DNA of 64,000 nt, taken from the NCBI GenBank assembly GCA_052035405.1, contig JBPOHQ010000008.1, positions 32,893 through 96,892 on the forward strand. The letters are read 5' to 3'. The stretch comes from Candidatus Nomurabacteria bacterium. GTDB lineage: Bacteria > Patescibacteriota > Minisyncoccia > Phycocordibacterales > UBA9973. A program made the translations under genes and the position numbers. Positions 8,747 through 42,871 of the stretch are shown here, one piece after another. Numbering within the stretch: position 1 is the first letter of the stretch; the number at the start of each line of letters is the position of its first letter. The notes beneath the pieces are model-generated. The model was not told the DNA's origin, searched no databases, and saw only the letters and a program-made list of their open reading frames with translations.

Positions 8747-8837
8747 GTGTACACAGAAAACTTCTGTACTTTTCTCTGCTGTTTTCTTATTTGTTTATTA
8801 TAGCAAAACTAAATAAACTTACCTCTTTCTGAGTATC

Positions 8838-11243
8838 TTATCTTTTGTTGAAATAATATTCGTACGGATTTTTTGTCTTGAACGGTGAATTTATTCTTCG
8901 GGCATCGATAACTTTATTCTTGTAGTACTCGTATACGGTTAATTTATTTCCAGAGAGCCACAATTGATACGCAGATACATCAGGACGACTTACACGAATC
9001 TCTCTTAGGTCCGGACCTACGTATCCAAATGCTTTACCGAATACGTGTGCAAGGTCCCATGCGAATTGTTGCAAGTTGTCCCCCTCGGTGTAGCCATATT
9101 TTCTTTGGAATATTGGACTCTTTTTAATTCTTCTTGCGAAGACAGTCTCTACTCCTTCGTGATATCTGACAATATCATCATTGTCTGGTTCAAGAGTTTG
9201 TCCAATGATTGGTAAGTGTGGGCCAACAGGACCAACTGGTGTTGTATCTTGCCCATCCGGTATTCCATCATTATCATCATCAGTGTCTAAGTTGTTAGGT
9301 ATTCCATCTCCATCTGCATCATCATCGTCTACATTTGGTATACCGTCACCATCAAGATCTGTGTCTAAGGTGTTTGGCGTACCTCCTCCATCATAGTCTG
9401 TTGGAGTCCCAATTCCAGTAGGACTTCCGTCTAATAAATCAGGTATTCCATCATTGTCATCATCAGTATCAGTAGTATTAGGAATTCCATCTCCGTCAGT
9501 ATCATTGTCTAGGATGTTAGGAATTCCATCCCCGTCCATATCGGAATCTAGGATATTCGGTATTCCTCCACCGTCATAGTCAAAGGGTGTTCCTGTTGCC
9601 GTAGGACTACCATCAAGGAGATCCGGTATTCCATCATTGTCATCATCAGTATCAGTAGTATTAGGAATTCCATCTCCGTCAGTATCATTGTCTAGGATGT
9701 TAGGAATTCCATCCCCGTCTATATCAGAGTCAACAGTATTTAAAAAGCCATCCCCGTCAAAATCTGTAGGGTTCCCTCCATTAGTATTTCCGTCGCCATT
9801 TGGATTTGTTCCGTTTCCATTTCCATTTCCACTATCACTTCCTGTGCCATCATCTCCAACTCCATCGTCTCCAGGATTTCCATCGTCTCCGTTTCCTGTA
9901 TCGGTATACCCACCTGTTTCATTTGGTCCGTTTCCATTATTGTTTCCGCCAGTATTGTTACCACCAGTATTTCCTCCTCCTGGGTCATTTGGTCCACCTG
10001 GATCTATTGCTGGATCATTTCCATAATCAATGTTGTTTCCATTACCGTCGTTTCCTACACCGTTGCCAGGATTATATGGAGTTCCGATATAATCAACAGC
10101 ATCAGTCAGTCTAGTTTTAAAATCCAAAGTAGCACCATAAAATGTTTGTGTTGGACTACTACTGCCTGTTGTGTTTATTGTTTCAGCTACTGCACGGACA
10201 TTGTAAGGAGTGTTTTTTGTTAAACCAGAAAGCTTAAAGCTCATGGTTCCATAACTTTTTGTTTCATGAGTCACTTCTCCAACTTTAATCCAATTTAACT
10301 CGCTCTCTTTTTTATATTCAAAAAATGTTTTTACTTTTCTACTGGAACCATAAGAACCCTTTAAAAAAGCAGATTTTGAAGTTATTTCTGAAGGAAAATA
10401 AGTTATCACAGAAGTATGAGGACAAGATTGACATGGGTCTGTGTGAAAAGTAACGACGCCACCATACTTTATTTCAGTTGGTTTGCGTGCATCATTTGAA
10501 ACAACAGCACAGTATGAATACAGTGTGTCTGGTTCTAAGTTCGTTACATTAGCAAAAAAATTTCCTCCACCAGAAACTTTTCCATAAGCATCTGGTACTG
10601 TTGAAATTATTCCTATCATCTGAGAACCAAATATTTCATTGCAGAAAATAGGTGGTTTGTCTACTCTAGACAATCTAAAGTATCCATAGGCCAAGGATCC
10701 AGTACCACCGACTGAACCCTTTAGTACAACATCAGTATCAGTAAGACCTGTTACTGTGTGGGTTGTTACACCGCTTATTTGATTTCCACTACCGCTACCA
10801 GTGCTTCCTCCACCAGAAGGTGGAGTGACAAGAGTTTTAAAGTTTTTTACACTACCATAATATACTTCACTTCCACCAAAATAAAGTTGATTTTGGTCTG
10901 TTGTTGCTACCGCACAGTAATAATAAGTTGTATCTTGTTGTAAGTTACCTATTTGCTGATTAAGAGTATTTAGTGTTCCTGTTGTTGATGTGTTAAAAGT
11001 AATTGTAGAACTAGAGTAAAAGTTTGTCATATTATAACAACTAGTACTAGCTACTGTTGTATATCTGAAATTAGCATATACAGGAAAATTGTTATAGTTT
11101 GTGACTGTTCCAGAAAGTGTAGCCTGTGTGTCAGTTATGTTTGATGCTGAGTTGGTGTTTACTATCATATACCCAAAAGTTATTGCTGGTACAAGCAATA
11201 ACAGTAGCATGAGTATTTTTTTGTATATTTTTTTACCGTACAC
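8838..11243 (-). CDS. Large secreted or surface repeat protein with thrombospondin-type-3-like calcium-binding repeats (DTDGDGIPN / DDDNDGIPD)
   Basis: N-terminal anchor MYGKKIYKKILMLLLLLVPAITFG; a Gly/Asn-rich tract; repeated D-x-D-x-D-G-IP motifs; near-identical internal duplication. Confidence 0.6.
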   Translation of the reverse strand: MYGKKIYKKILMLLLLLVPAITFGYMIVNTNSASNITDTQATLSGTVTNYNNFPVYANFRYTTVASTSCYNMTNFYSSSTITFNTSTTGTLNTLNQQIGNLQQDTTYYYCAVATTDQNQLYFGGSEVYYGSVKNFKTLVTPPSGGGSTGSGSGNQISGVTTHTVTGLTDTDVVLKGSVGGTGSLAYGYFRLSRVDKPPIFCNEIFGSQMIGIISTVPDAYGKVSGGGNFFANVTNLEPDTLYSYCAVVSNDARKPTEIKYGGVVTFHTDPCQSCPHTSVITYFPSEITSKSAFLKGSYGSSRKVKTFFEYKKESELNWIKVGEVTHETKSYGTMSFKLSGLTKNTPYNVRAVAETINTTGSSSPTQTFYGATLDFKTRLTDAVDYIGTPYNPGNGVGNDGNGNNIDYGNDPAIDPGGPNDPGGGNTGGNNTGGNNNGNGPNETGGYTDTGNGDDGNPGDDGVGDDGTGSDSGNGNGNGTNPNGDGNTNGGNPTDFDGDGFLNTVDSDIDGDGIPNILDNDTDGDGIPNTTDTDDDNDGIPDLLDGSPTATGTPFDYDGGGIPNILDSDMDGDGIPNILDNDTDGDGIPNTTDTDDDNDGIPDLLDGSPTGIGTPTDYDGGGTPNTLDTDLDGDGIPNVDDDDADGDGIPNNLDTDDDNDGIPDGQDTTPVGPVGPHLPIIGQTLEPDNDDIVRYHEGVETVFARRIKKSPIFQRKYGYTEGDNLQQFAWDLAHVFGKAFGYVGPDLREIRVSRPDVSAYQLWLSGNKLTVYEYYKNKVIDARRINSPFKTKNPYEYYFNKR
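9421..9780. repeat. Tandem direct DNA repeat of about 180 bp (two copies, roughly 100 bp near-identical) encoding the DNDTDGDGIPNTTDTDDDNDGIPDLLDGSPT block
   Basis: 9421-9536 and 9601-9716 are almost identical by eye (ggaattccatctccgtcagtatcattgtctaggatgttaggaattccatccccgtc...). Confidence 0.7.
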
Positions 11244-11291
11244 TTTTTATTTTTTCTGTCTTATTTTGGTACTGTATATTTTAACACTTCT

Positions 11292-13874
11292 TTAATAAAT
11301 ACCGAACATTTTTTCAAACTTACGAGTCACAACTCCGCAAACATTTGCGTTGTATGGGCCAACTGGGTAAGACTCCAGTCCTCCAAGATCGGTAGTATTT
11401 CCAGTATCTTTGTCTATATTTGGCAGAGATATTTCCACCCATCCTACAAATTCAGGGCAAGTTGTAGGAGTTACTACCCAGTTATTGACGTACACACTAC
11501 CGTATAAGAATCCTTCGTTTGTGCTCCATGATTGAACTGCATTTTGACTCCATGGAGTTGTGGTGTTTGGATTTAATGGAGCTGTACTTTGTCCTGGTGC
11601 ACCGTATAGGTAATACACAGGAGTACCATAAGGTTGTCTTCTGTAGAATTTACTATAAACAGTATTGTTACTTGAATAAATATTTTTTACTTCTTCTTCA
11701 CACCCACCTGGGCCTTTCAACAGATCATCCCAGACGTACTTTTTTTGACTTTCAAGTTCTTTTAGTAAAGAGTCTGCTTTTGCTACATCATCTCCCGTAA
11801 CCATATCTTTGGTTAATCTTCCAAAGAAAGAAATCCAAGGTCTTAGATCATCCTCGTTTGCGTTTGCTCCACCGAGTGCCTCAATTGCTTCTTTTATTTG
11901 GACAAGTCTGACTACAACACTTTTCTTGAAGGTAATTTCTTCAAAATTATCTTCACCTATTTGTTCGTATCCAACTATTTTATTGTATTCATTGCGTGCT
12001 TCAGTTGTTACCAACGGCATAGGTGCTAAAGAATTTGCCCCACTGTTGTACATTTTGTAAATCTGTTTTCTGTATGTTTCAAAAGTGTTTTCTATAACAT
12101 TTCTTATTCCATCTTCATCTAGAACTTGGTCTTGTTCATTGTTATCACCGGCACCAATAGCACCATAAATGTGTACATCGTAGAGTTTACTAAGGTACGT
12201 TGCAACCTGCCTTTTTACTTGTCTTTCTTTTGAGTTTTCAAGTATTGCTGTAGCTATACCAGACACTATACCCGTAGGGTCAAATGCAGGGAGAAGATCA
12301 AGAAGGGGTGTTTCAAGTCCTACAGGGCTGTATTTTATGGTGTCATAGAAATTATCAACACTAGCTGCACTTTCCCAATCTGGACGTGGTCCAGGAATAC
12401 AGTAATCTAATTGTCTGATTGATTTTACTAACTCTGGAATTACTTCATTTTGTTTTTCTAATTTTTCTATGTAAATTCTTTGTTCATCAATGATTGCCTG
12501 ATTGAGATCTGTTCTGATGTTAAAATCAGGATGTTGTTCAAGCCAATCACTACCAAGTTGCCATGATGGAAAATCTCTTTCTGTTTGTGGATCTGAGTAA
12601 CCACTTGCAGAAGCCGCATCGTTATCTAACACAAAAGCACCACCAGAACCTTCGTTTGAGAAATCAGCAAAACCTTTATTTGTAATATCGCTTGACCATT
12701 TATTTAATAGAGCATCAAGGATTGCCCCTATTGCATCATTTAAATCATCTGCATTTAGAAGATTATTATCAGGATAATTTATGGCTTTAGTTGCAGCCTG
12801 AGCCACCATTTGTCCTGGGGTAACATATTCCCATCTTTTACATATACCGATAATGTTTCCTGAGGAGTCTCTTTCTCCATCTATTAGGGCTTTTTGGTGC
12901 ATTTCTTTGGTTATACCTTCTGGTTCTGCACAACGTTCATCTCCAAGATATCCATTTGCTTGGTCGAGAGCTTTTTGAATTTTGGTAGCAGGTGAAGTTT
13001 GAGTACCTTCAAGTCTGAAGCGTAATTCATTTGACGCCATTAATTGGAAACCTAAAGGATTGTTTGCTGGTACCGAGGTTAAAGATCTCCAAGCATTCCA
13101 ACCACCTTTTGAAAAGTCTGAACTAAAAGTAATAGCATTATATTGTGGTGTTGTTTCAGCGATTAATTCATTTAAAGAATATTGAGCATTGTCTGCAAAT
13201 TTTCTATTGTAAGCGTTTACTTGATTTCTGAGCCAATTTTTTGCATAAGGATATTTTACTGGATCGTCTATTTCGAGTCCAAAAGCTCGTATTTCATTTT
13301 TTGCGATATCTTCAAAGAATTTTCCAGGGTTCTGTAAGAAAAGAGGCTTACCTTCAAAACCATTATTTATCCATGCCACAGTACTTAAAGTTATTTTTTG
13401 AAGCATGAGCTTTATTACCATTCTACCAATACTTTTCAGACAAGTGTCGTTTCTTGCTATGTCATCAACACCCTTTTGGGTTGCGGTGGCCTTATCAAGT
13501 GTTTTTTTTACGTCATTTTTTAACTCTTTTCCAACATCAACGCCAATAGTTTGAGAGTCAGAAACTGCATCAGAGGCTGTTTGTGCAAAACTACTAAGTG
13601 TACCTTTTACACCAAGAACCTCTCCGGCTTTTCCTAAATTTACTCCACCAAAAAGACTTTTTACCGCTCCAGTTATTTTACCCTTACATAACGGTAGTTG
13701 TTTTATTACAGGACCTACATTTTTTAGGTAACTACCTACACCATAAGAACCCCCACTGCTATATCCACCAGCACTCTGGGCATTTACATTTTCTACAAAT
13801 ATAAAATAGGGCGTAGACAAAAAGCTTACAATAAGAAGTGAAGTTATAAAATTTTTAAAATATTTTTTCCCCAC
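11292..13874 (-). CDS. Large (860 aa) secreted hypothetical protein
   Basis: Signal peptide MGKKYFKNFITSLLIVSFLSTPYFIFVENVNAQS; no recognised catalytic motif. Confidence 0.5.
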   Translation of the reverse strand: MGKKYFKNFITSLLIVSFLSTPYFIFVENVNAQSAGGYSSGGSYGVGSYLKNVGPVIKQLPLCKGKITGAVKSLFGGVNLGKAGEVLGVKGTLSSFAQTASDAVSDSQTIGVDVGKELKNDVKKTLDKATATQKGVDDIARNDTCLKSIGRMVIKLMLQKITLSTVAWINNGFEGKPLFLQNPGKFFEDIAKNEIRAFGLEIDDPVKYPYAKNWLRNQVNAYNRKFADNAQYSLNELIAETTPQYNAITFSSDFSKGGWNAWRSLTSVPANNPLGFQLMASNELRFRLEGTQTSPATKIQKALDQANGYLGDERCAEPEGITKEMHQKALIDGERDSSGNIIGICKRWEYVTPGQMVAQAATKAINYPDNNLLNADDLNDAIGAILDALLNKWSSDITNKGFADFSNEGSGGAFVLDNDAASASGYSDPQTERDFPSWQLGSDWLEQHPDFNIRTDLNQAIIDEQRIYIEKLEKQNEVIPELVKSIRQLDYCIPGPRPDWESAASVDNFYDTIKYSPVGLETPLLDLLPAFDPTGIVSGIATAILENSKERQVKRQVATYLSKLYDVHIYGAIGAGDNNEQDQVLDEDGIRNVIENTFETYRKQIYKMYNSGANSLAPMPLVTTEARNEYNKIVGYEQIGEDNFEEITFKKSVVVRLVQIKEAIEALGGANANEDDLRPWISFFGRLTKDMVTGDDVAKADSLLKELESQKKYVWDDLLKGPGGCEEEVKNIYSSNNTVYSKFYRRQPYGTPVYYLYGAPGQSTAPLNPNTTTPWSQNAVQSWSTNEGFLYGSVYVNNWVVTPTTCPEFVGWVEISLPNIDKDTGNTTDLGGLESYPVGPYNANVCGVVTRKFEKMFGIY

Positions 13875-13955
13875 GTTTATTTTTATCTAGAAAGATAGAT
13901 AGTATTATTATACTCTGTTTTTACTTTAAATAAAGTAAAAATGTTTAAAAACAGA

Positions 13956-14894
13956 CTATTCTTGAAGTGAACCTTCTAATTCTTCTACTGCCGTTATTAA
14001 ATCATTACTGTATTTTTCATACTGAGAAAGTCCAGAGAGTCCAACGAGTGGGTCAGTGATGATTTTTGTCATGTTTAATACACTTATACCTGTATTGTTT
14101 GCACCATTTGCTATTGCAAGATGTATGTCTAATAAACCTGTTGGAACAGAAACTTTCATGACAGATTTACTAAAATCTTGATATGCTTGAGCTATTTTGA
14201 TTAGTTCTTGGTTTTGTCCTGTGTTTGTGCTTGTTGAAGAATATATAGATAAATCACTGTTTACTATATCCAACTCATCCCCTAATCCTTCTTTTTCGTA
14301 TTTTTGAAACAGGTTTTTCAATTCTCTGTAATATTCAACCCTATTGAATTCAGTGTCTTCTGTGTTTATGGTCGTTTCTGTATCTTTATATTTGTCTATA
14401 AGCGTAGGGTTTGCAATTCTTTGACCTAAAGCATCAGAAAATGCATTGATCGACTGGTTATCAACTTCTCCTGAGGCTTTCAAAGCTGTATAAGCACTGA
14501 AAAATTCTCTAGCAAATCTTTCTGTTTCTGTAAGTGTTAAATCATTTTTTTCTTGCTCTATGTCCAACTCTTTCTTTTTGTTTTTTACATATATGTTGTC
14601 TGGTATTCCGTTAAAAGTAACTTTCTTATTTTTATCTGTTCCCCAAAGTGCTTCTTCCCAGTCTAAAAGACCATCTCCATCAGTGTCTGTGTTTATAAGT
14701 CCTATAATTGTTTGATTTTCTACTTCTAGTCCATCTACCCCCTTTTTAGAATTAAAGCTTTCTTTTTTTGAAAAAATAAAAAATATTAAAAATAACACAC
14801 AAAATACCAACGCCCAAACGCCTATCATTTTTGTAAATTCTTTACTCGGTAAATATTTTCTGTATTTTTCTGGTATTTTAAATGAGTATTTCAT
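13956..14894 (-). CDS. Membrane-anchored hypothetical protein with a DTDGDGLLDWEE calcium-binding-like motif
   Basis: N-terminal TM VWALVFCVLFLIFFIF; DTDGDGLLDWEEALWGTD motif; start overlaps the stop of the upstream ORF (TAATG). Confidence 0.5.
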   Translation of the reverse strand: MKYSFKIPEKYRKYLPSKEFTKMIGVWALVFCVLFLIFFIFSKKESFNSKKGVDGLEVENQTIIGLINTDTDGDGLLDWEEALWGTDKNKKVTFNGIPDNIYVKNKKKELDIEQEKNDLTLTETERFAREFFSAYTALKASGEVDNQSINAFSDALGQRIANPTLIDKYKDTETTINTEDTEFNRVEYYRELKNLFQKYEKEGLGDELDIVNSDLSIYSSTSTNTGQNQELIKIAQAYQDFSKSVMKVSVPTGLLDIHLAIANGANNTGISVLNMTKIITDPLVGLSGLSQYEKYSNDLITAVEELEGSLQE

Positions 14895-15280
14895 TATTTT
14901 TTTGATGTACCCCAGATGGTTATGGTATCTAGGTTAACTGTTTCTTCTGATGGTGGTTCTATTCTTGTGCAGCTAACGGTTGTTTTACCCTGATATTTTC
15001 CTATAATTTTTTGACCACTATGTGCCGTTGTTCTCGTTTTAGACATTGTCAGTGCTGGTATGAAATATTCTTTAGGCATTCCCACTTTTTGGGGTTTTAT
15101 TTGTATTGTTGTTCCTACCACTATACAGGTATATCCTTGTTGTTCCAGTCTTTCTATGCTTTGTGCCTTTGGTTTTATTATTGTTCCACCAAAAACATTA
15201 CCAAAACCGGCTTGAGCAATATCCCAAAAAAGTAAAGAAATAAAAAGTATTAAAAAAGCATAGACCGTATTTTTCTGCAT
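14894..15280 (-). CDS. Small secreted hypothetical protein; first gene of the minus-strand cluster
   Basis: Signal peptide MQKNTVYAFLILFISLLFWDIAQA; stop overlaps the downstream ATG. Confidence 0.45.
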   Translation of the reverse strand: MQKNTVYAFLILFISLLFWDIAQAGFGNVFGGTIIKPKAQSIERLEQQGYTCIVVGTTIQIKPQKVGMPKEYFIPALTMSKTRTTAHSGQKIIGKYQGKTTVSCTRIEPPSEETVNLDTITIWGTSKK

Positions 15281-15322
15281 TTATATATTATATCAATACT
15301 TGGTTAAAAGAAAAAGGAAAGT

Positions 15323-22268: not shown

Positions 22269-23018
22269 TTATTCGAGTAAAGTTAATGCGATCATTGCTC
22301 CGATACCAAGGAGAAGCATGATGACTTGGAGGATAAAATATCTTCCTCCTTTGGTCCTTTGTAGTTCTGGGATGAGGTCTCCTACGGCTATGTAAATAAA
22401 TCCTCCAGCCGCTATGGGTAAGATTATTTTTATGAAGTTTTCGCTCATGTCTCCTATTATAAAAACAAGGGCAAGTCCGAGCATGGCGGTCAATGCAGAC
22501 AGAAAATTAAGCCAAAGAGCTCGTGTTTTGCTGTAGCCACTATGAATAAGTACCGCAAAATCTCCTATCTCTTGGGGTATTTCGTGAAGTACGACCGCAA
22601 TGGTCGTTGCTATTCCGACAGGAATACTGATTAAAAAACTTGCTCCAATGACTATACCATCGACAAAATTATGAATACCATCTGAGAAGAGAACTAACTT
22701 ACCCACAGGGTGTATGTGGTATTCATCTGTGTCATCTTCGTGATGGTGCCAGTGTAAAAATTTCTCCAATATAAAAAATATAAATATCCCTAGTATGATA
22801 TACAGTCCAATTGTTGTTGGATTTGTCGCCTCTACGAAAGCTTCAGGAATCAGGTGGATAAAGGCATCTCCGAGTAATGCTCCAACTGCCAGACTAATAA
22901 AAAGAGAAATATATTTTTTAATTAAATCAGCTCGAAGAGAGAGTGTAAAAACTCCAACAAGTGAGATGAGACTTATCGCCGTGACACTTAAGAAAGAATA
23001 TAGATATGTTTCGTTCAT
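22269..23018 (-). CDS. zupT: ZIP-family zinc transporter
   Basis: HNFVDGIVIGASF and HEIPQEIGDFAVL motifs; polytopic membrane protein. Confidence 0.85.
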   Translation of the reverse strand: MNETYLYSFLSVTAISLISLVGVFTLSLRADLIKKYISLFISLAVGALLGDAFIHLIPEAFVEATNPTTIGLYIILGIFIFFILEKFLHWHHHEDDTDEYHIHPVGKLVLFSDGIHNFVDGIVIGASFLISIPVGIATTIAVVLHEIPQEIGDFAVLIHSGYSKTRALWLNFLSALTAMLGLALVFIIGDMSENFIKIILPIAAGGFIYIAVGDLIPELQRTKGGRYFILQVIMLLLGIGAMIALTLLE

Positions 23019-23099
23019 GTGATAAAGATACTATATCCTTAATGCAGTTTATTTGCAAGTAAAAGTTTGTTCAACTTTGATTATTTATGTGGATAAACA

Positions 23100-23660
23100 A
23101 AAGTGACAAGTGTTTTAGTCTCTGGTAGGATGTGCTTATAGTATTGGTTTTTTGATAATTAAAACTTGGCTAGGGCAAAAGAAATAGTGTTTAATATAGT
23201 TATTGAGTACTATTTCTTTTGTCTTGCCATGACAAAGAAAGTATCCAGATGGGTTGTGTCCCATTTTCTGTTTCCGCCTGGAGACAAAAATTAACCCAAT
23301 GACAGGGTTAGTCTGGTGCTTTCTTTTAAGAAAGATATTTGTTTTGGGGTTCCCCCAGGTAAGCGTGTGACGCCCTATCGTCACACAAACTGCCTGGGGT
23401 TTCCAGAACTAAAAAGAATGTTAGATAAGTAAGCACTCAGGGGGAGCCTGGTACAAAGGTTCTGGGTTCCCTTTTTGCTTCATCTGACAAGAGGTAAGAT
23501 TAGCGGTTCTTCCAGCTCTGCTGAAAAGTGGTGGCTGGATTTGTTGAAAAATCCTCTCCATTTTGGAGAGTAAAGATACGAGACAGAAGAAAAGATCCAA
23601 ATAAAATGTGTTGTGCGACTTGGTAGCAATTATCAAGTCGCATTTTTATTTATTTAATTA
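23100..23660 (+). ncRNA. Candidate structured non-coding RNA of unknown class, ending at an intrinsic terminator
   Basis: About 550 nt with no credible ORF; multiple nested helices (ccccagg...cctgggg, gtgtgacg..cgtcacac, ctttctt..aagaaag); terminator gcgactt-N13-aagtcgc followed by a T-run at 23615-23652. Confidence 0.25.
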
Positions 23661-23681
23661 ATTGAATTGTGGATAACTATT

Positions 23682-23708
23682 TTGCATACTTTTTTAAAGT
23701 GGTATAAT
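23682..23708 (+). promoter_or_regulatory. Sigma70-like promoter (TTGCAT-N15-TGgTATAAT, extended -10) driving the multi-hairpin RNA
   Basis: ttgcat at 23682-23687; tggtataat at 23700-23708. Confidence 0.5.
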
Positions 23709-23714
23709 TAATAC

Positions 23715-24090
23715 AGAGATAAAAAAGTTGTTCGACAAACAAGAAGAGAGAGATGTAGGAAATAGTATTTAATTCTTTGAATACTGCTTCCTATATCTAC
23801 CCCTTCTATGATATAGAAAAAAATGCATCTAACGATGCAAACTATCGCCACCACGTGGCAACCAAAAAACTGTTACAATTGTAACAATTTAATTTAATCG
23901 CTAATTATATTAGCAAACCGTTTCCCGCTCTTTCGAGCAAAAAAATTGTTGATTATTATCAACACCTGTTCTTTCTAAAAATAGCTAACATCTGTTAGCA
24001 AAACTCATATAGTCACTTCGGTGACAACATCTATCGCATATTTTATATGCACTACAACCCAGCAAAAAATCGCTGGGTTTTTTGTTTGTA
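23715..24090 (+). ncRNA. Candidate novel non-coding RNA of about 375 nt made of about 12 different short hairpins (12-26 nt palindromes) at roughly 27-nt spacing, bounded by a promoter and a terminator
   Basis: No ORF; palindromes at 23764, 23791, 23824, 23847, 23871, 23900, 23927, 23948, 23984, 24012, 24036 and 24058, including a perfect 16-mer tgttacaattgtaaca and a UUCG-loop hairpin gtcacttcggtgac. Confidence 0.4.
24058..24086 (+). terminator. Rho-independent terminator (cccagc-N8-gctggg followed by TTTTTT)
   Basis: Hairpin plus T-run read directly. Confidence 0.75.
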
Positions 24091-24100
24091 TTTTTAAATT

Positions 24101-24129
24101 TTGCTAAAAAACCAATAACAAGCTATAAT
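24101..24129 (+). promoter_or_regulatory. Consensus sigma70-like promoter TTGCTA-N17-TATAAT upstream of tRNA-Pro
   Basis: ttgcta at 24101-24106; tataat at 24124-24129. Confidence 0.55.
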
Positions 24130-24154
24130 CATAGAGTTTTCAGTAAGAAGTATT

Positions 24155-24225
24155 CGGGCTGTAGTATACCGGTAGTACAAGCGCTTTGGGAGCGTTTAGA
24201 CTGGGTTCGATTCCCAGCAGCCCGA
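24155..24225 (+). tRNA. tRNA-Pro (anticodon UGG); CCA not encoded
   Basis: Cloverleaf by hand: acceptor cgggctg/cagcccg, anticodon loop tttggga, T-arm ctggg-ttcgatt-cccag. Confidence 0.85.
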
Positions 24226-25292: not shown

Positions 25293-25766
25293 TCATAAAA
25301 CAATATCAGAAATTACATTTATTTTTGCTTTTTTATGAGCTAGATCTAGATAAACCACCAGTAGATCCACTTGCCACCCCGTATCTTCTGAGATTCTATT
25401 GGACATAAGGTATGTCTGGATTGTCCGTGATAGACGCTTCAGTTTCCAAGGGTGCATGTTATCTTCAGGCCGATAATCATCCTTCTCGAACGTTTCATGT
25501 GGAACATTCTTTCCTTCTGTTTCATGAGAAACATTAGTTTTTGATGTTTCACGTGGCACAAATGAAGGTAATGTTACGCGTGAAACGCTTTTTACCTCAA
25601 TAAAATAGAGTTTTCCTTGTTTTTCAGCTATTATATCTATTTCACCCCATTTTTTAGTGTAGTTACGATCAATTACTGAGTAACCGTGTTTCACAAGAAA
25701 ATTAACGGCGATATTCTCGCCAATTTCTCCTGTTTTCTGGGTTTTTGAAGTAAAAACCTTTGGCAT
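25293..25766 (-). CDS. yraN: YraN/UPF0102-family endonuclease-like protein carrying an in-frame repeat insertion
   Basis: GEIGENIAVNFLVKHGYSVIDRNY..GEIDIIAEKQGKLYFIEVKS and a C-terminal GWQVDLLVV block fit UPF0102; an inserted segment VTLPSFVPRETSKTNVSHETEGKNVPHETFEKDDY is encoded by the palindrome array. Confidence 0.65.
   Translation of the reverse strand: MPKVFTSKTQKTGEIGENIAVNFLVKHGYSVIDRNYTKKWGEIDIIAEKQGKLYFIEVKSVSRVTLPSFVPRETSKTNVSHETEGKNVPHETFEKDDYRPEDNMHPWKLKRLSRTIQTYLMSNRISEDTGWQVDLLVVYLDLAHKKAKINVISDIVL
25491..25585. repeat. Array of four 14-bp palindromic elements at exact 27-bp spacing inside yraN (gtttcatgtggaac, gtttcatgagaaac, gtttcacgtggcac, gttacgcgtgaaac)
   Basis: Copies start at 25491, 25518, 25545 and 25572; the 27-bp period keeps the reading frame (9 codons). 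Confidence 0.8.
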
Positions 25767-25842
25767 GTATTAATTATACAAACAAAACGATAAAAATGTT
25801 ATATGTGTAACAAATCACAACTACGTTTTATAAATAATTAGT

Positions 25843-25856
25843 GTTTCATGTGGAAC
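25843..25856. repeat. Solo intergenic copy of the 14-bp palindromic element (gtttcatgtggaac, identical to the 25491 copy)
   Basis: Exact 14/14 match to the copy at 25491. Confidence 0.6.
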
Positions 25857-26039
25857 AAGAAGTTGGAAATGACAATTAGAGCCAATTCTATATTTTATAA
25901 GGGTTTTTTAGGTTACTTTGGTCTAAAAGACAAGATTTTTATGTCCGTTATGCACAATACCAACATAGTTATCCACAGTCTGTTAGTAAGTCCTTATTTT
26001 TTAATAACCACAAATATCAGTCATCAGAGACAAAATTTG

Positions 26040-26111
26040 TGCACCCGGAGGGATTCGAACCCCCAACGACGGTTCCGAAGACCGGCGTGATATCCATTTC
26101 ACTACGGGTGC
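26040..26111 (-). tRNA. tRNA-Arg (anticodon UCG, tentative); CCA not encoded
   Basis: Minus-strand cloverleaf: acceptor gcacccg/cgggtgc, D-arm gtga-aatggata-tcac, anticodon loop cttcgga with one C:U mismatch at the base of the anticodon stem, T-arm ggggg-ttcgaat-ccctc. Confidence 0.65.
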
Positions 26112-26253: not shown

Positions 26254-26289
26254 GATTTAGTTCTTTTATTTTTTATTATACATAACTAA

Positions 26290-26360
26290 GCGGTTATGGT
26301 TTAGTGGTAGAACACGTCCTTGCCAAGGATGAGACGGGAGTTCGATTCTCCCTAGCCGCA
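26290..26360 (+). tRNA. tRNA-Gly (anticodon GCC); CCA not encoded
   Basis: gcggtta...cacgtccttgccaaggatg... close to the canonical tRNA-Gly(GCC) anticodon arm; T-loop ttcgatt. Confidence 0.85.
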
Positions 26361-26371
26361 CAAATTCCAAG

Positions 26372-27964
26372 GTGGAACAAAATACTAAAAATTTAAAAAC
26401 AAAGATACCTAAAGAGGTTTCACATGTAACAAAAAACCTAGAAGAAGCTGGTTTTGATGTTTTTCTTGTTGGAGGGTGCGTAAGAGATATTTTAATGAAT
26501 AAAGAGCCTAAAGATTGGGATCTGACTACCAACGCTACTCCAGAACAGATTATTCCATTGTTCGACAAGACTGTGTACGAGAATAACTTCGGAACGGTAG
26601 CTGTTTGCGTGCCACGTGAAACAAAAAATACCTTTGTTCCGCATGAAACAGGAGTTTTTGATGTTTCACGTGGCACAAATGGTTCAACTAATAAAAATGT
26701 TACACATGTAACAGAAGAAAGTGTTCCACATGAAACGCTAGAATATGAGATAATTGAGGTTACTCCATATAGAACCGAGACAAAATACAGTGATTTTAGA
26801 CATCCCGATGAAGTAAAATTCAGCGATAAACTAGAAGATGATCTAAAAAGACGTGATTTTACAGTAAATGCTATGGTTATGGACTCTCAGGGTCATGTGC
26901 AGGATCTGTATAATGGTTTAACGGACATAAAGGACAAAATTTTAAGGACAGTAGGAGAGCCAGACGAGAGATTTAACGAAGATGCACTTAGAATGTTAAG
27001 AGCTGTTCGTTTTGCTTGCCAGCTTGGATTTTCTATTTCACATGAAACATCTGAAAGCATGTTTCGAAATGCCGATTTAATAAAAAAGATATCCACAGAG
27101 AGGATTCGTGATGAATTTTCAAAGATAATCATGTCACCGACTCCGGCCGCTGGAGTGGTTATGTTACAAAAATTTGGATTATTAAAACATGTTATTCCTG
27201 AGTTAGAGGAGGGTATAGGATGTGTTCAAGGTGGTGCACATATATACGATGTGTGGGAACATTTGTTAATGGCTCTCCAGCACGCTGCAGATAAAAATTG
27301 GCCATTTGAAATTCGTTTTGCCGCACTTATGCATGACATAGGTAAACCGAGAACTCGAAGACCTGGAGAAAAGAAAGCCTATACTTTCTACGGACATGAA
27401 GTCGTGGGTGCACGAATGGCGAAGAAAATAATGGAGAGATTAAAATATTCTAGAAAAGAAACAGAACTAGTGGAGATTTTTGTCCGAACTCACATGTTTT
27501 TCTCTGATACAGAGAAAATAACTCTCTCTGCTGTACGGAGAATTATTGCGAAAGTTGGAAAAGAAAATATTTGGTTACTTATGAATATTCGTGAGTGTGA
27601 CCGAGTCGGCATGAAAAAAACAGAAGCACCGTATAGATTACGTAAATACTTTGCCATGATAGAAGAAGCTCTTCGTGATCCTATTTCTGTGAAACAGCTT
27701 AAAATTGACGGAAGTTACATGATTAACATGTTACACATGAAACCTGGACCCCGCATGGGCTGGATGTTAAACGCTTTACTTGAAGAAGTTCTAGAAGATC
27801 CGACAAAGAATGAAATTGAGTATTTAAAAAATAAAATTCTAGAATTAGAAAAACTTGAGGATAAAGATTTACGAGAACTTGGCGAGAAAGGGAAAGAAGC
27901 AAAAGAAGAATTAGAAGAAGAAGAAATAGAAAAATTACATGCTAAGCATGGGGTAAAAAAATAA
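26372..27964 (+). CDS. cca: CCA-adding tRNA nucleotidyltransferase (polymerase-beta head plus HD domain) with in-frame palindromic-repeat insertions; GTG start 12 nt after tRNA-Gly
   Basis: FLVGGCVRDILMNKEPKDWDLTT, RRDFTVNAM, HD motif LMHDIGKP; an atypical inserted segment VCVPRETKNTFVPHETGVFDVSRGTNGSTNKNVTHVTEESVPHETLEYE. Confidence 0.85.
   Translation: MEQNTKNLKTKIPKEVSHVTKNLEEAGFDVFLVGGCVRDILMNKEPKDWDLTTNATPEQIIPLFDKTVYENNFGTVAVCVPRETKNTFVPHETGVFDVSRGTNGSTNKNVTHVTEESVPHETLEYEIIEVTPYRTETKYSDFRHPDEVKFSDKLEDDLKRRDFTVNAMVMDSQGHVQDLYNGLTDIKDKILRTVGEPDERFNEDALRMLRAVRFACQLGFSISHETSESMFRNADLIKKISTERIRDEFSKIIMSPTPAAGVVMLQKFGLLKHVIPELEEGIGCVQGGAHIYDVWEHLLMALQHAADKNWPFEIRFAALMHDIGKPRTRRPGEKKAYTFYGHEVVGARMAKKIMERLKYSRKETELVEIFVRTHMFFSDTEKITLSAVRRIIAKVGKENIWLLMNIRECDRVGMKKTEAPYRLRKYFAMIEEALRDPISVKQLKIDGSYMINMLHMKPGPRMGWMLNALLEEVLEDPTKNEIEYLKNKILELEKLEDKDLRELGEKGKEAKEELEEEEIEKLHAKHGVKK
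26417..26430. repeat. Single copy of the 14-bp palindromic element (gtttcacatgtaac) near the 5' end of cca
   Basis: Encodes VSHVT in the cca frame. Confidence 0.55.
26609..26736. repeat. Array of five 14-bp palindromic elements inside cca (starts 26609, 26636, 26663, 26699, 26723; spacings 27, 27, 36, 24, all multiples of 3)
   Basis: gtgccacgtgaaac, gttccgcatgaaac, gtttcacgtggcac, gttacacatgtaac, gttccacatgaaac. Confidence 0.8.
27714..27743. repeat. Degenerate copy plus intact copy of the palindromic element (gttacatgattaac ... gttacacatgaaac) near the 3' end of cca
   Basis: Read directly; encodes MINMLHMKPG. Confidence 0.5.
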
Positions 27965-30375: not shown

Positions 30376-31311
30376 TTATCTCTTACTATGATATTTTTTA
30401 TGAGTCTCTAAAAGTTTTTTGTCGGTGACGTGAGTGTATATCTGCGTAGTAGAAATACTTGAGTGTCCAAGCATCATCTGTACAGAACGTAAGTCTGCAC
30501 CGTTACCGAGCAAGTCCGTTGCAAACATATGACGCATAACGTGAGGAGTAACCTTTTTAGATATTCCAGCCTTAGTCGCATGTTGTTTAACAATCCTTTC
30601 TATTGATCTTTTCCCTAGACCTTTCATATCCATATTTTTCTTTGAAATATTTTTTTTATCAATATCGTTCCCAACTTGTACAAATAACGCTTCGGACATG
30701 TCTTTACGTAATGCTAAATATTTCTTTACTGCTTCTTTGGCTGTATCAGAAATAAATACTACGCGAACTTTACCACCTTTACCTCGCACAGATAATTCGT
30801 CTGTAGTTAAATCGATATCAGCCGTTAAGGAACAAAGTTCTGAAACACGTAATCCGGTGGAGAATAGAAGCTCTAGAATGGCCTTATCTCTCACATCTTT
30901 TATGTCCGAACCTTTTGGGGAATCTAAAAGTCTGTTTAATTCTGTTTCAGTAATGAGGTCAAGTTGACGTTCTCCAACTTTTGCGAGCTCTATTTTCTCT
31001 GCGGACATTGTCCTTATCTCTTGACGTGTGAGATATTTAAGGAATGCACGTAACGCTATCAGGTAATAATTTTGAGTTTTTTTAGAAAGAGTTTCTCCTT
31101 TATCTTTATGGTGACCTGTACTTTGTCTATTGAGCCATAGTCTAAATTCACGGACCATGGTGTCATTTATTTTTTCTGGATCATCATTTTTTGTGTAGTC
31201 TAAAAATCTACTGAGATAATGGTCATAATTCTCGACTGTTTTGAGCGATCTACCTTTTTCTATCTCTACGTATTCTAGAAATTGAGTCTTTAGTTTTTTA
31301 AGGGATGCCAT
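30376..31311 (-). CDS. xerD: Tyrosine site-specific recombinase XerC/XerD family
   Basis: R..GLRVSEL, HVMRHMFATDLL, LGHSSISTTQIYTHV catalytic motifs. Confidence 0.85.
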   Translation of the reverse strand: MASLKKLKTQFLEYVEIEKGRSLKTVENYDHYLSRFLDYTKNDDPEKINDTMVREFRLWLNRQSTGHHKDKGETLSKKTQNYYLIALRAFLKYLTRQEIRTMSAEKIELAKVGERQLDLITETELNRLLDSPKGSDIKDVRDKAILELLFSTGLRVSELCSLTADIDLTTDELSVRGKGGKVRVVFISDTAKEAVKKYLALRKDMSEALFVQVGNDIDKKNISKKNMDMKGLGKRSIERIVKQHATKAGISKKVTPHVMRHMFATDLLGNGADLRSVQMMLGHSSISTTQIYTHVTDKKLLETHKKYHSKR

Positions 31312-40458: not shown

Positions 40459-41025
40459 ATGGAGAATTCGTATCAAGACAAAATTCAAAATTTTTATTCT
40501 AAGAATAAACGAATGCCGACATACTCGGAGATGATGAAGCTTTTCGGATTGAAGTCTAAAAATGCAATTTACAAAATTGTGAATAAATTAGAAGAAGCAG
40601 GAATGGTTGCAAAGGATCATCTAGGAAGACTCATTCCTACACAATCCTTTGGAGAGATTCCTATGCTTGGACTTGTGAAAGCAGGTTTCCCGTCTGATGC
40701 CGAAGAGCAAGTTCTCGACACTATGAGCCTTGATGACCTACTTATAGGGAAAAAAGAACTAACTTATATGCTTGAGGTAGATGGAGACTCGATGATCGAA
40801 GCACATATACAAAAAGGAGACACAGTGCTTGTCGAGAAAACTAATTCTGCAAAAGACGGAGAAATAGTCATCGCTGAAGTAGACGGAGAGTTTACTATGA
40901 AATATTTCAAAACTAAAAATGGCAAAGTCTGGCTCGAACCCGCTAATAAGAATTTTAAAAACATATACCCTACTCAGAGCCTAAACGTAATAGCAAAAGT
41001 AAAAGCGGTGATTAGGAAATATTAA
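40459..41025 (+). CDS. lexA: LexA-like repressor (N-terminal HTH plus S24 peptidase domain)
   Basis: MLEVDGDSMIEAHIQKGDTVLVEK...GEIVIAEVDGEFTMKYF with the Ser-Lys dyad region. Confidence 0.8.
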   Translation: MENSYQDKIQNFYSKNKRMPTYSEMMKLFGLKSKNAIYKIVNKLEEAGMVAKDHLGRLIPTQSFGEIPMLGLVKAGFPSDAEEQVLDTMSLDDLLIGKKELTYMLEVDGDSMIEAHIQKGDTVLVEKTNSAKDGEIVIAEVDGEFTMKYFKTKNGKVWLEPANKNFKNIYPTQSLNVIAKVKAVIRKY

Positions 41026-41049: not shown

Positions 41050-42102
41050 ATGTCTGCAGTTACTGGGTTAAAATCTAATTTAATAAATTTGTCGAACAAG
41101 CGTCCTCTTTCAGGCACTAAAGAATCTCTGAAATTTATTGATTTTTGTGCTGGGATTGGTGCTGGACGTATCGGCTTGGAAAAAAATGGACTAACTTGTG
41201 TTGGATTTTCTGAAATAGACAAACAAGCTGAATTAACTTATAGAAAGCTTTTTGGTGATGAGGAAATAAATTACGGAGATTTGATGAAAATAGACGCAAA
41301 CAAGTTGCCTGATTTTGATATGATGATTGCCGGCTTTCCTTGTCAAAGTTTTTCCGTTATTGGTCAAAGAAAGGGTATGCAAGATGAACGTGGGCAGATT
41401 ATTTATGGCCTTACTAAGATAATGCGTTCAAAAAATCTCAAATACTTTATCTTAGAAAATGTGAAGGGGCTTACTAATCATGAAAAAGGTAATTCACTCA
41501 AGATTATTTTAAACGAATTAGACAGGGTTGGGTATAAAGTTTTCCATAAAGTGTTGAATAGCATTGACTACGGTGTACCGCAAATGCGTGAGAGAATTTA
41601 CCTTGTTGGTATTAGAAAGGATTTAGTGCCTAAAAATTTTGAATTTAATTTTCCAGAACCTCAATCAAAAGTAGACGTAAAACATTACTTAATTGATCCA
41701 AGGGAGTCTGAATTTAAAGAAAATAAAGTTGTTTATGCAACATTTTTAAGATATCTAAAAAATAAGTACAACAATAATCAGTATTCCGTTAAGAGTTTTC
41801 TTAAACAAGAATATGTAATATTGGACACAAGGCAGTCTGATTTAAGGATTTATCATAATAGAGTGCCTACTCTCAGGACAGGTAGACATGGTATTTTATA
41901 TGTAAGAGATGGAAAATTTAGAAAACTATCCGGAGTTGAGTCTTTGTTGTTGCAAGGTTTTCCTAAAGATCTTATTAAGAGAGTAGATGGATATATCAAT
42001 GAAAATTATCTGCTGAAGCAGGCTGGGAATGCTATGACTGTTAACACTATTGAAGCTATTTCTAGAGAGTTGTTTAAGACATTGAAAAAATATGAACAAT
42101 AA
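41050..42102 (+). CDS. DNA (cytosine-5)-methyltransferase
   Basis: Motif I DFCAGIGAG, motif IV GFPCQSFS, ENVKGL, QAGNAM; layout resembles M.MspI/HpaII-type enzymes (specificity not assigned). Confidence 0.9.
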   Translation: MSAVTGLKSNLINLSNKRPLSGTKESLKFIDFCAGIGAGRIGLEKNGLTCVGFSEIDKQAELTYRKLFGDEEINYGDLMKIDANKLPDFDMMIAGFPCQSFSVIGQRKGMQDERGQIIYGLTKIMRSKNLKYFILENVKGLTNHEKGNSLKIILNELDRVGYKVFHKVLNSIDYGVPQMRERIYLVGIRKDLVPKNFEFNFPEPQSKVDVKHYLIDPRESEFKENKVVYATFLRYLKNKYNNNQYSVKSFLKQEYVILDTRQSDLRIYHNRVPTLRTGRHGILYVRDGKFRKLSGVESLLLQGFPKDLIKRVDGYINENYLLKQAGNAMTVNTIEAISRELFKTLKKYEQ

Positions 42103-42871
42103 AAAGAAAAACCAGAAAGAAATGGTGGCTCTTGGCTCAAAAACCGCAAAGGGCGGGTTTGCAAACGAGCAGGACGTTATTAATCGATTTAATAATTGGA
42201 AGACCGATATGATTGCTCAAGAATGGTTAGCAGAAATGAATTACAAAATAGACGATATTGAGTTTGTGCAAGCTTCAAAAGTGAAAGGTCAATATAAAGC
42301 CGATATTCAGGTTAGGATAACTATATTAATAAAACAACAATCTCAAGAGGATGTGCAGAATTTACAGGTGAAGCTCGTGAGTAATCCGCAAGGATTTAAT
42401 CAAATAGATAAAAGATGGGTTGATAAATATGTGGAACTTTGGAATATCCCCGCTGACGTATCAAGGATACTTAAGCTTTTTACTGGTGAAATAGCTTCCT
42501 CAAAAAGCGGTTTAAGAGATCCGCGAAGAATGTTTTTAGATGAAATGAGTGTGTCTGACCAAGATAAACTTATAAAATTTATAGAGGGAAACAAGATCTT
42601 GATTATTTCAGATTTATTAAAAGGTAGAGGGGAATTTTCTGCAGATTGGACATTGGTTATTTTAAAAGTTACAGGAGATGATGCTTGGGTTTTAAGATCA
42701 GTAAATCACGTTATGAATGTTTTTGGTTCAGGTGAAGTCCTAATTACTCGTAAGGGTAGTTTGAATATTGGTAATATTACCATGCAAAGAAAAGGGGGAG
42801 ATGGAGGTCGCAAAACAGCTCAAATGCTTCAATTTAAAATAAATCCTGTCTTGTTATTTGATAGTAAATAA
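42092..42871 (+). CDS. Putative type II restriction endonuclease partner of the m5C methyltransferase (MspI-like?)
   Basis: Start overlaps the MTase stop by 11 nt; C-terminal RKGGDGGRKTAQMLQFK loosely resembles the MspI C-terminus; identity tentative. Confidence 0.45.
   Translation: MNNKKKNQKEMVALGSKTAKGGFANEQDVINRFNNWKTDMIAQEWLAEMNYKIDDIEFVQASKVKGQYKADIQVRITILIKQQSQEDVQNLQVKLVSNPQGFNQIDKRWVDKYVELWNIPADVSRILKLFTGEIASSKSGLRDPRRMFLDEMSVSDQDKLIKFIEGNKILIISDLLKGRGEFSADWTLVILKVTGDDAWVLRSVNHVMNVFGSGEVLITRKGSLNIGNITMQRKGGDGGRKTAQMLQFKINPVLLFDSK

Follow-up and report, generated by a model that had tools for sequence, protein, structure and literature searches.

A cluster of short palindromes that lies mainly within two housekeeping genes of a Parcubacteria/Paceibacteria (CPR) genome is very probably an origin-proximal, ParB-loading centromere embedded in coding DNA. 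The palindromes were encountered in a 64,000-nucleotide stretch of a Candidatus Nomurabacteria contig (hereafter the window), and their sequence argues strongly that they are parS sites, TGTTNCACGTGNAACA, the 16-bp centromere sequence that is recognised by ParB/Spo0J dimers and is near-universal in bacteria. Purifying selection acts on the DNA of these sites and not on the peptides that they encode.

Matches to GTTNCACGTGNAAC with at most one mismatch in its 12 specified core positions occur 10 times in the window, compared with 0.05 expected, and none of 100 shuffles reached this number. All 10 reside between 25.49 and 27.74 kb, in the cca gene, in the divergent yraN (UPF0102) gene, or in the spacer between the two, and the rest of the window outside this yraN-cca zone carries no copy at the same threshold. 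A looser search permitting up to three mismatches yielded 16 matches, compared with 3.6 expected. In total, 13 parS-like copies (four in yraN, one intergenic and eight in cca) form one compact cluster of 2.3 kb, whose components are as follows.

25293..25766, minus strand: yraN (UPF0102) gene (Pfam PF02021), with a four-site array in the loop after the IEVKS strand
25491..25506: parS-like site CGTTTCATGTGGAACA, one core mismatch; the minus strand reads VPHET in YraN
25518..25533: parS-like site TGTTTCATGAGAAACA, two core mismatches, in YraN
25545..25560: parS-like site TGTTTCACGTGGCACA, one core mismatch, VPRET in YraN
25572..25587: parS-like site TGTTACGCGTGAAACG, one core mismatch, VSRVT in YraN
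25842..25857: intergenic parS-like site TGTTTCATGTGGAACA, between the yraN start and tRNA-Arg, with no real gene over it
26039..26111, minus strand: tRNA-Arg(TCG), within the cluster
26290..26361, plus strand: tRNA-Gly(GCC), within the cluster
26372..27964, plus strand: cca gene, class II CCA-adding enzyme with an HD domain, 530 amino acids, eight sites
26416..26431: parS-like site GGTTTCACATGTAACA, VSHVT (residues 16-20), in the N-terminal helix of Cca
26612..26737, plus strand: 42-codon Cca insertion (residues 81-122), comprising five sites and their spacers
26608..26623: Cca array unit 1, CGTGCCACGTGAAACA (VPRET)
26635..26650: Cca array unit 2, TGTTCCGCATGAAACA (VPHET), two core mismatches
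26662..26677: Cca array unit 3, TGTTTCACGTGGCACA (VSRGT)
26698..26713: Cca array unit 4, TGTTACACATGTAACA (VTHVT)
26722..26737: Cca array unit 5, TGTTCCACATGAAACG (VPHET)
27034..27049: weaker site TATTTCACATGAAACA, two core mismatches, ISHET (Cca residues 222-226)
27729..27744: site TGTTACACATGAAACC, in the other open frame, LHMK (Cca residues about 453-457)

A preliminary description of this DNA had reported five 14-mers in cca at 26609, 26636, 26663, 26699 and 26723. Each was found at its position, the reported spacings of 27, 27, 36 and 24 nt hold, and the open reading frame (ORF) at 26372..27964 on the plus strand reads VPRETKNTFVPHETGVFDVSRGTNGSTNKNVTHVTEESVPHETLEYE exactly as had been quoted. 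The solo copy described near the 5ʹ end of cca, at 26417 (GTTTCACATGTAAC), is also real. Of the copies proposed near the 3ʹ end (27714-27743), the element at 27730-27743 (GTTACACATGAAAC) is a good match, whereas the stretch at 27714 has three core mismatches and probably arose by chance. A further copy that was absent from that description is located at 27035 (ATTTCACATGAAAC). It had also been recognised that two unrelated genes flanking tRNAs share the repeat, and indeed UPF0102/YraN carries four copies (25492, 25519, 25546 and 25573, spaced by 27, 27 and 27 nt) in addition to those in Cca, with an intergenic copy at 25843. An assembly artefact does not account for the array, as the Cca protein encoded by an independent public assembly is identical, including the array. 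The same five-unit Cca array is present in two relatives at 90-93% identity.

For comparison among related genomes, we assembled a set of 81 sequences consisting of the window and 80 orthologous cca loci, each taken with 10 kb on either side of cca. At least one copy of the palindrome is present in 60 of the 81 sequences and a perfect copy in 29; the related genomes together hold 50 perfect GTTNCACGTGNAAC cores. The commonest 16-mer over the whole set is TGTTTCACGTGAAACA (12 copies), which is the optimal, or consensus, parS sequence in the literature, and the second commonest across the related genomes is TGTTACACATGTAACA, which forms unit 4 of the Cca array. The flanking T (51-64%) and A (50-52%) of the 16-mer recur although the search imposed neither, and the most variable position is the known N position of parS. 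Bases G1 and A6 of each half-site discriminate parS from NBS, the binding site of Noc (Jalal et al.), and these bases are of the parS type rather than the NBS type in our collection, with G at 87-100% and A at 95-100%. The 16-bp inverted repeat TGTTNCACGTGNAACA is thus present at this locus, though none of the 13 window copies is a perfect parS. Each instead combines one consensus half-site with one half-site that carries a single change, often at the central CpG, where CACATG or CATGTG replaces CACGTG. Binding can be abolished by changes close to the middle of the site in the related SopB-sopC system, and the affinity of ParB for the imperfect sites of the window may be low.

The genomic distribution of the sites is equally characteristic. 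All 223 copies in the 81 sequences reside between -4 and +2.5 kb of the cca start, in clusters spanning 0.25-5 kb, and the flanks outside this zone (about 0.79 Mb over the 81 sequences) contain none. A sequence that is 100% identical to window positions 1-2519 (L081) extends the locus leftward to rpmH-rnpA-yidD-yidC-jag and then to dnaA-dnaN, which places dnaA about 29-30 kb from the cluster. Locus tags in nine other Parcubacteria genomes place cca 23-43 genes from dnaA. Over the 82 kb covered for this genome, and in the 10 kb to either side of cca elsewhere, the copies are therefore few, undispersed and origin-proximal. In the literature, parS is typically restricted to the origin domain, and clustering at a single locus near the origin is a parS signature.

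An origin within the window itself was considered, as a cumulative GC-skew minimum at 20-26 kb and perfect DnaA boxes at 23088, 23668 and 25969 first hinted at one. This idea was dropped as unproven because the skew tracks gene strand and because dnaA-dnaN, with boxes of its own, lies about 30 kb to the left. Searches of the window and of the 22.9-24.2 kb region with Rfam models returned only tRNAs. Two other explanations for a recurring short sequence were set aside: DNA-uptake sequences are ruled out since those are dispersed genome-wide, and restriction-site avoidance is ruled out since the number of copies in the flanks, which is zero, matches chance expectation.

If the sites are parS, the arrangement might have arisen and might operate as follows. 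The genome has very little non-coding DNA, and most sites are therefore written into coding sequence. In tolerant surface loops of cca and yraN they multiplied as phased arrays, in which the usual centre-to-centre distance is 27 or 24 bp (9 or 8 codons). The host proteins would thereby carry a disordered passenger insertion, and the V-x-R-E-T peptides would be a by-product of the centromere. ParB dimers are expected to load on the sites as CTP-dependent clamps, and a dense array could thus create a strong loading zone from which a partition complex forms and SMC is recruited to the origin region. 

A variant of this arrangement, which we regard as unlikely, is that the arrays serve two purposes, being the main centromere of the organism while their translation or transcription also matters, either through throttling of expression or through co-option of the peptide. 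Under the first version, ParB clamps that load inside cca, yraN and the pair of tRNA genes could reduce the expression of these genes and thereby couple tRNA maturation to the cycle of replication and segregation. Under the second, exposed V-x-R-E-T repeats could, for instance, tether Cca or YraN to the partition complex.

No gene for the protein that would read the sites was found beside them. A Pfam scan of 40 window ORFs revealed no parB, parA or dnaA, and neither parB nor parA was found in the 64-kb window plus the 18 kb added by two overlapping sequences, L081 and L082 (82 kb in total). Regular expressions for GERRxRA and KGGxGKT revealed no parB or parA within 10 kb of cca in the 80 genomes, and a phmmer search of 3,881 ORFs from all loci, with approximate Spo0J, Thermus ParB and Soj sequences as queries, returned no ParB or ParA. 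A conserved unknown neighbour was entertained as the binding protein and rejected, as the 302-amino-acid ORF adjoining yraN occurs in only 2 of 80 loci. Among 17 Parcubacteria genomes, a 2015 core-gene table for the phylum records COG1475 (the ParB group) in 13 and SMC in 14, and the COG1475 genes are located far from dnaA. COG1192 (ParA) is missing from the same table, and the classical ParA-driven segregation step may consequently be missing as well. Our searches of the literature found nothing relevant on parS or ParB in CPR/Patescibacteria, and searches with the peptide words of the array returned only noise.

The missing neighbouring parB leaves some room for a different DNA-binding protein, such as a lineage-specific regulator of the yraN-tRNA-cca region or a Noc-like paralogue, with the likeness to parS reflecting shared ancestry or convergence. 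Divergent promoters and two tRNA genes lie within the bounds of the cluster, and the imperfect copies of the window are conserved as such among strains. Nevertheless, the perfect cores and the consensus 16-mer of the related genomes, the parS-type discriminating bases, and the single-locus clustering close to the origin all favour ParB, as does the membership of the ParB group among the core genes of the phylum. Moreover, at least 10 sites spread over 2 kb of coding sequence are unlike the layout of an operator. We consequently judge a different binder to be quite unlikely. As a related and likewise unlikely reading, a factor other than canonical ParB could read the uniformly imperfect sites of this particular genome.

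Cca matches the Pfam families PolyA_pol, PolyA_pol_RNAbd, HD and tRNA_NucTran2_2 and aligns with CCA-adding enzymes in the PDB (E = 4e-50). Its alignment with PDB 6IBP is interrupted only at query residues 81-122, which lack a counterpart there, and the insertion is thereby delimited. The preliminary description had placed the array between the nucleotidyltransferase head and the rest of Cca, but it instead splits the head domain, which PolyA_pol matches in two stretches. Residues 84-122, which lie between strands 76-81 and 125-132, have a predicted confidence (pLDDT) of less than 50, and the insertion is therefore predicted to form the disordered tip of a beta-hairpin. Likewise, YraN matches PF02021 (E = 9.9e-17) with an interruption after profile position 43, and PDB 3FOV aligns to YraN only up to the array. 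At the corresponding position, YraN orthologues have 0-4 V-x-R/H-E-T units, and the arrays have added as many as about 60 residues to their host proteins.

From a native loop of 10-11 residues, the Cca array expanded in situ by the addition of units, mostly 9 codons apart. Distant Cca orthologues retain a loop of this length without sites, one relative (L005) carries a single site within a loop of ancestral length, and loops are longer where there are more sites (Spearman rho 0.58, p = 4e-8). In 120 orthologues, the spacing from one unit to the next is 9 amino acids in 96 of 160 cases and 8 in 23, and neighbouring copies in non-coding DNA are spaced by 24-26 bp.

This history bears directly on the earlier proposal that the palindromes are a spreading selfish element, that is, a mobile repeat like the Rickettsia palindromic elements that inserts in frame and is tolerated. 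Such an element would explain why one motif family occurs in frame in two unrelated genes, why copy number differs between orthologues (1 to 6 in Cca), and why sequence appears to have moved or been converted between the colinear Cca and YraN arrays, as the Cca site at 26662 and the YraN site at 25545 share 29 nt of identity that includes flanking spacer bases. However, an array that begins as one site in a loop of ancestral length requires no insertion event, and the 14-16 bp units lack terminal repeats and target-site duplications. Dispersal across unrelated genes is not seen, as nothing is present beyond the 6.5-kb zone in about 0.79 Mb of flanks or in the rest of the window, and the same orthologous slots are filled across the clade, down to about 50% Cca identity (the slot of site 26416 in 20 orthologous genomes and that of 27729 in 15). 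Furthermore, the consensus is a known host protein-binding site, and purifying selection constrains its copies more strongly than it constrains synonymous positions in the host gene, which is the opposite of what is expected for tolerated junk or for insertions whose presence and absence are free of selection. A selfish origin is thus largely refuted and is very improbable.

Selection on the sites can be separated from selection on the protein. In a comparison of three strains (90-93% identity), the 16-mers vary at 8.5% of their third-codon positions, compared with 40.2% for the rest of cca (Fisher p = 5e-6), whereas the spacers between sites in the insertion vary at 52%. Sites 26416 and 27034 are identical in the three strains, unit 2 of the array (26635) varies in its left half and is constant in its right half, and the slot of site 27729 holds CACGTG in one relative (L085). 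Codon choice follows the palindrome: valine in the motif is encoded by GTT in 18 of 20 cases (35% background) and arginine by CGT in 7 of 9 (21% background), and AGA, which accounts for 27% of the background, is never used.

Reading frames lead to the same conclusion. One of the three frames of GTTTCACGTGAAAC contains TGA, so a genic copy must use one of the other two, which explains why the spacings are multiples of three. The first open frame, GTT-TCA-CGT-GAA-ACA, yields V-S/P/T-R/H-E-T, and the second, nnG-TTT-CAC-GTG-AAA, yields F-H-V-K. Copies within cca are distributed over the frames as 76, 20 and 4. Of the 115 copies outside cca, 41 lie where there is no ORF of at least 100 amino acids, and the remainder use frame 0, frame 2 and rarely frame 1, mostly on the minus strand, with several overlapping the yraN start codon as MFHVKQ.

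These observations are difficult to reconcile with V-x-R/H-E-T being a functional module of Cca and YraN whose palindromy is incidental. In favour of such a module, translation runs through every array, more than 120 orthologues keep an intact ORF, and the N-terminal VSHVT lies in a confidently predicted helix in which V16, V19 and T20 are invariant among 21 orthologues. A module selected as protein should, however, occupy one coding frame and allow free synonymous change, whereas the palindrome occurs in DNA without a long ORF and in a second frame that encodes F-H-V-K, and synonymous positions in its units show about 5-fold less variation than those in other parts of cca. The third residue alternates among R, H and C, which are chemically unrelated and one transition apart at the CpG, and the insertion is predicted to be disordered and is missing from solved homologues and distant orthologues. 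Selection for a peptide is therefore highly improbable, and the preliminary description was right that these are not host-protein repeats: the sites use two frames, both coding strands and DNA devoid of long ORFs, and they conserve synonymous positions while the peptide spacers are free to change. Least probable of all are RNA hairpins that control the stability or translation of the cca and yraN mRNAs, for although each unit lies within a transcript in the arrays and could in principle form a short hairpin, perfect palindromes of 14-16 nt without a spacer give only weak stems of 5-6 bp, copies also occur in DNA without a long ORF and in genes on both strands, and a role in RNA gives no reason for the conserved flanking T and A or for the identity with parS.

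The centromere interpretation provides a concrete, sequence-defined candidate for a large branch of uncultured bacteria, and the yraN-tRNA-cca locus could serve as a marker of the origin domain in fragmented assemblies. Selection on a DNA site that writes protein sequence would also explain a class of odd low-complexity insertions in CPR proteins. Caution is thus warranted against taking V-x-R-E-T, F-H-V-K, or the Cca and YraN insertions for functional protein motifs or mobile elements. Finally, the tight 24-27-bp phasing raises the issue of the minimum distance at which neighbouring ParB dimers or clamps can load.

The parS/ParB system itself is well known, and what is new here is an architectural variant of it. 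Chromosomal parS sites bound by ParB (Spo0J) consist of the same 16-bp inverted repeat, TGTTNCACGTGAAACA, occur in few copies in the origin region (8-10 in Bacillus subtilis, 10 in Corynebacterium glutamicum, and 4 in Streptococcus pneumoniae, which has no ParA), and include tolerated degenerate copies. Genic sites are already known among them as well, and the parS inside spo0J of B. subtilis reads V-P-R-E-T, in the same frame as the arrays described above. In contrast to those systems, most sites here form phased tandem arrays (24-27 bp) within two housekeeping ORFs whose proteins are lengthened as a result, and the anchor of the cluster is yraN-tRNA-cca, with no parAB operon nearby. NBS, which is read by the ParB-family protein Noc, is likewise a 16-bp palindrome, but it differs at two positions per half-site, with A and C where the sites described here have G and A, and it is distributed chromosome-wide rather than clustered near the origin. 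Rickettsia palindromic elements are about 100-150 bp long, are dispersed in many genes genome-wide, and are not known to match a host binding site. They are reportedly in-frame selfish repeats in protein-coding genes, as Ogata et al. are said to have described in 2000. Like the parS-like sites, they place palindromes in frame within unrelated genes, where the protein is exposed and tolerant of additions, whereas the units here are 16 bp, reside at one locus in orthologous slots, and are under purifying selection. In its layout, the locus resembles sopC of the F plasmid, in which 12 repeats of 43 bp, each containing a 16-bp inverted repeat to which the ParB homologue SopB binds, form a regular head-to-tail array of ParB-family sites and thus one compact centromere. 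However, sopC is non-coding and has a longer unit and a different site sequence, whereas the array described here is chromosomal, carries the chromosomal parS sequence, and is translated.

The preliminary description had reported one family of palindromes in two unrelated genes, and our analysis confirms this, the second gene being yraN:

25293..25766, minus strand, yraN (UPF0102; Pfam)
26372..27964, plus strand, cca, class II CCA-adding enzyme with an HD domain (Pfam)

The five 14-mers of the cca array were recovered at 26609, 26636, 26663, 26699 and 26723, with spacings of 27, 27, 36 and 24 nt, and the translation quoted for them is that of the 530-codon ORF 26372..27964(+). The solo copy reported at 26417 is also a good match, whereas the stretch given near the 3ʹ end (27714–27743) holds up only in part: the copy at 27730 matches well, and the 27714 stretch is weak, with three core mismatches. 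There is an additional cca copy at 27035, and yraN carries four copies, 27 nt apart (25492, 25519, 25546 and 25573), with one intergenic copy at 25843. Allowing at most one mismatch to GTTNCACGTGNAAC, the window holds 10 copies compared with 0.05 expected, all within 25.49–27.74 kb. Most 14-mers are preceded by T and followed by A to give a 16-mer, and all window copies (13/13) are imperfect, combining one consensus half-site with one that bears a single change, often in the central CpG. Assembly artefact, which had been raised as a possible source of the array, is contradicted by an independent assembly encoding an identical Cca protein, and by the presence of the same five units in two relatives at 90–93% identity. 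A 136-codon antisense ORF through the Cca array (26266–26676(−); MPRETSKTPVSCGTKVFFVSRGT) could be reported by gene callers, but is spurious, since neither strand of the palindromic units contains a stop in the frames used.

We fetched 80 orthologous cca loci from one genome per species, including flanks of at most 10 kb on either side, and in these the commonest 16-mer is TGTTTCACGTGAAACA. This is the optimal parS of Bacillus subtilis ParB and the consensus in many phyla. The flanking T (51–64%) and A (50–52%) are enriched in these loci, though not demanded by the search, and the N position of the parS consensus is the most variable position here too. Binding by a different protein was considered. 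Two bases per half-site, G1 and A6, tell parS from the Noc binding site (NBS). The copies carry the parS-type bases at these positions (G in 87–100%, A in 95–100%), and this agreement, together with the exact parS consensus, makes a different DNA-binding protein unlikely. An RNA role for the palindromes has no support. The analysis as a whole shows a single-locus, origin-proximal cluster of sites whose consensus is identical to parS. Site quality is strongly lineage-dependent: one related locus (L014; contig CAZYHU010000013.1) has 13 sites, 12 with perfect cores, over 5 kb from −2.8 to +2.3 kb around cca, whereas those of the window genome are all imperfect.

The genome belongs to a CPR bacterium of Parcubacteria/Paceibacteria type. 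When the window is taken together with the 80 loci, all copies (223/223) fall inside a zone from −4 kb to +2.5 kb relative to the cca start, with none in ~0.79 Mb of flanking sequence. At least one copy occurs in 60/81 sequences and a perfect copy in 29/81, with cluster spans of 0.25–5 kb. Upstream copies reside in the divergently transcribed yraN, found upstream of cca in about 50 loci, and in the adjoining spacer. Outside cca, 41/115 copies fall where no ORF of at least 100 aa exists; the remainder are read in frame 0 (V-S-R-E-T), in frame 2 (F-H-V-K), which frequently overlaps the yraN start codon as MFHVKQ, or rarely in frame 1, only where the N position converts TGA to TGT. Within cca, the counts for the three frames are 76, 20 and 4, and four slots recur (residues 15–19, the 80–120 loop, 345–360 and about 450).

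Selection on these sites was assessed among the window genome and its two relatives. Third-codon positions are variable in 8.5% of columns inside the eight 16-mers of cca and in 40.2% of those in the rest of the gene (Fisher p = 5e-6). Over all positions, 52% of columns vary in the spacers within the insert, a 42-codon insertion in Cca, compared with 18% in the rest of cca. When motif peptides were chosen by protein pattern alone, their Val codon was GTT in 18/20 cases against a 35% background, and their Arg codon was CGT in 7/9 against 21% and never AGA, against 27%. Imperfect forms such as TGTTACACATGTAACA are invariant in the three strains, and they are maintained as such rather than decaying. 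Together the patterns show that purifying selection acts on the DNA of the sites. A protein-level repeat fails to explain copies in DNA lacking a long ORF, use of a second reading frame and conservation of synonymous sites, and the preliminary description was right to set host-protein repeats aside. Spacings in multiples of three arise because a DNA site inside a gene is restricted in its reading frame, and are no sign of a protein repeat. The spreading selfish element that the preliminary description proposed, akin to in-frame RPE repeats, fails on the confined distribution of the copies, their orthologous conservation and the selection upon them.

Cca aligns continuously to the solved CCA-adding enzyme 6IBP except for residues 81–122, which have no counterpart. 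The insertion had been placed between the head and body of Cca, but this alignment shows the head domain itself split at a hairpin turn. An AlphaFold model has strands at residues 76–81 and 125–132, with pLDDT <50 for 84–122. Distant orthologues have a 10–11-residue loop without a site at this position (e.g. VNEDTEDETLK), one related locus (L005) has a single site in an equally long loop (IQEDVSRETLR), and closer relatives have 2–6 units in loops of up to 73 residues; loops are longer where sites are more numerous (rho 0.58, p = 4e-8). Point mutation within the native loop thus gave rise to the first site, and amplification followed. The YraN array, of 0–4 units, follows the same pattern directly behind the catalytic (I/V)EVK strand. 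The alignments show arrays embedded in coding loops, where they grew in place. Neighbouring units are spaced 9 aa apart in 96/160 cases and 8 aa in 23/160, and non-coding neighbours are 24–26 bp apart. The two window arrays are colinear on the plus strand and, 1.1 kb apart, share a 29-nt identity (AGTTTTTGATGTTTCACGTGGCACAAATG; 25533–25563 and 26650–26680) that includes fast-evolving spacer bases; one array has probably been converted by, or duplicated from, the other in recent time.

A public contig (L081) that is 100% identical to window 1–2519 carries, further to the left, rpmH-rnpA-yidD-yidC-jag and then dnaA-dnaN, whose intergenic spacer contains DnaA boxes; dnaA is thereby placed ~29–30 kb from the cluster. 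Judging by the locus tags that Nelson and Stegen (2015) list in their table of core genes, 23–43 genes separate cca from dnaA in nine genomes of Parcubacteria, with 36 in the single-contig genome RAAC4. Such a location is as expected from the literature, where parS sites are a feature of the origin domain. COG1475 (the ParB group) appears in the same table for 13/17 genomes and SMC for 14/17, and ParA (COG1192) is missing from its core list. We located no parB in the readable 82 kb of this genome or within ±10 kb of cca in the 80 genomes. In the tabulated genomes ParB lies far from dnaA, which would explain its absence near cca. Beside the cluster are three perfect DnaA boxes (TTATCCACA; 23088(−), 23668(−) and 25969(+)) and a cumulative GC-skew minimum at ~20–26 kb, with dnaA-dnaN ~30 kb further left. 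These features possibly represent a displaced or second DnaA-binding region; alternatively, the skew merely follows gene strand.

Other features of the neighbourhood were recorded. The gene order yraN-cca-exoIII-xer-NYN-PNPase is broadly kept in the clade, and the XerC/D-type tyrosine recombinase gene (30376–31311(−)) lies 4–5 kb downstream of cca in 40/80 genomes. Between a ZIP transporter gene and tRNA-Pro, ~400 nt (23225–23650(+)) of an ORF-free stretch (23018–24155) folds far better than its shuffled versions do (z = −7.9), and its end has a terminator-like hairpin and U-run. Neither Rfam nor blastn against the 80 loci gave a match, and it is a candidate structured RNA of a new kind. At 41050–42871(+), a gene for a C-5 cytosine methyltransferase precedes one for an R.HinP1I-family restriction endonuclease; the pair (a GCGC-type system) adjoins an S24/LexA-like peptidase gene (40459–41025). 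A minus-strand block between jag and ksgA, adjoining the origin genes (1–15300(−) and L081 1442–3859), encodes a TraG-type P-loop ATPase (2090–3952), a protein with faint T4SS-pilin and clear NlpC/P60 matches, and several large proteins without a family. The block is similar to the type IV secretion system of Patescibacteria in bioRxiv 10.1101/2025.01.22.634366.

By analogy with established ParB biology, ParB dimers would load on the sites as CTP-dependent clamps and then slide outwards. A dense array would act as a strong loading zone, at which the partition complex would be assembled and SMC recruited. The 24–27-bp phasing may mark the tightest packing possible for dimers that sit on roughly opposite helix faces. 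The V-S-R-E-T and F-H-V-K peptides would be passengers, with coding loops serving as homes for the sites because the genome is compact. The parS element is textbook knowledge, and parS sites inside genes are already known. In the searchable literature we found no description of any CPR centromere, of a fixed centromere home at yraN-tRNA-cca, or of two housekeeping proteins whose variable-length insertions are translated from phased tandem parS arrays. What seems new is the architecture of the cluster rather than the parS system itself. If ParA is truly absent here, the arrangement would resemble the ParA-less system of Streptococcus pneumoniae.
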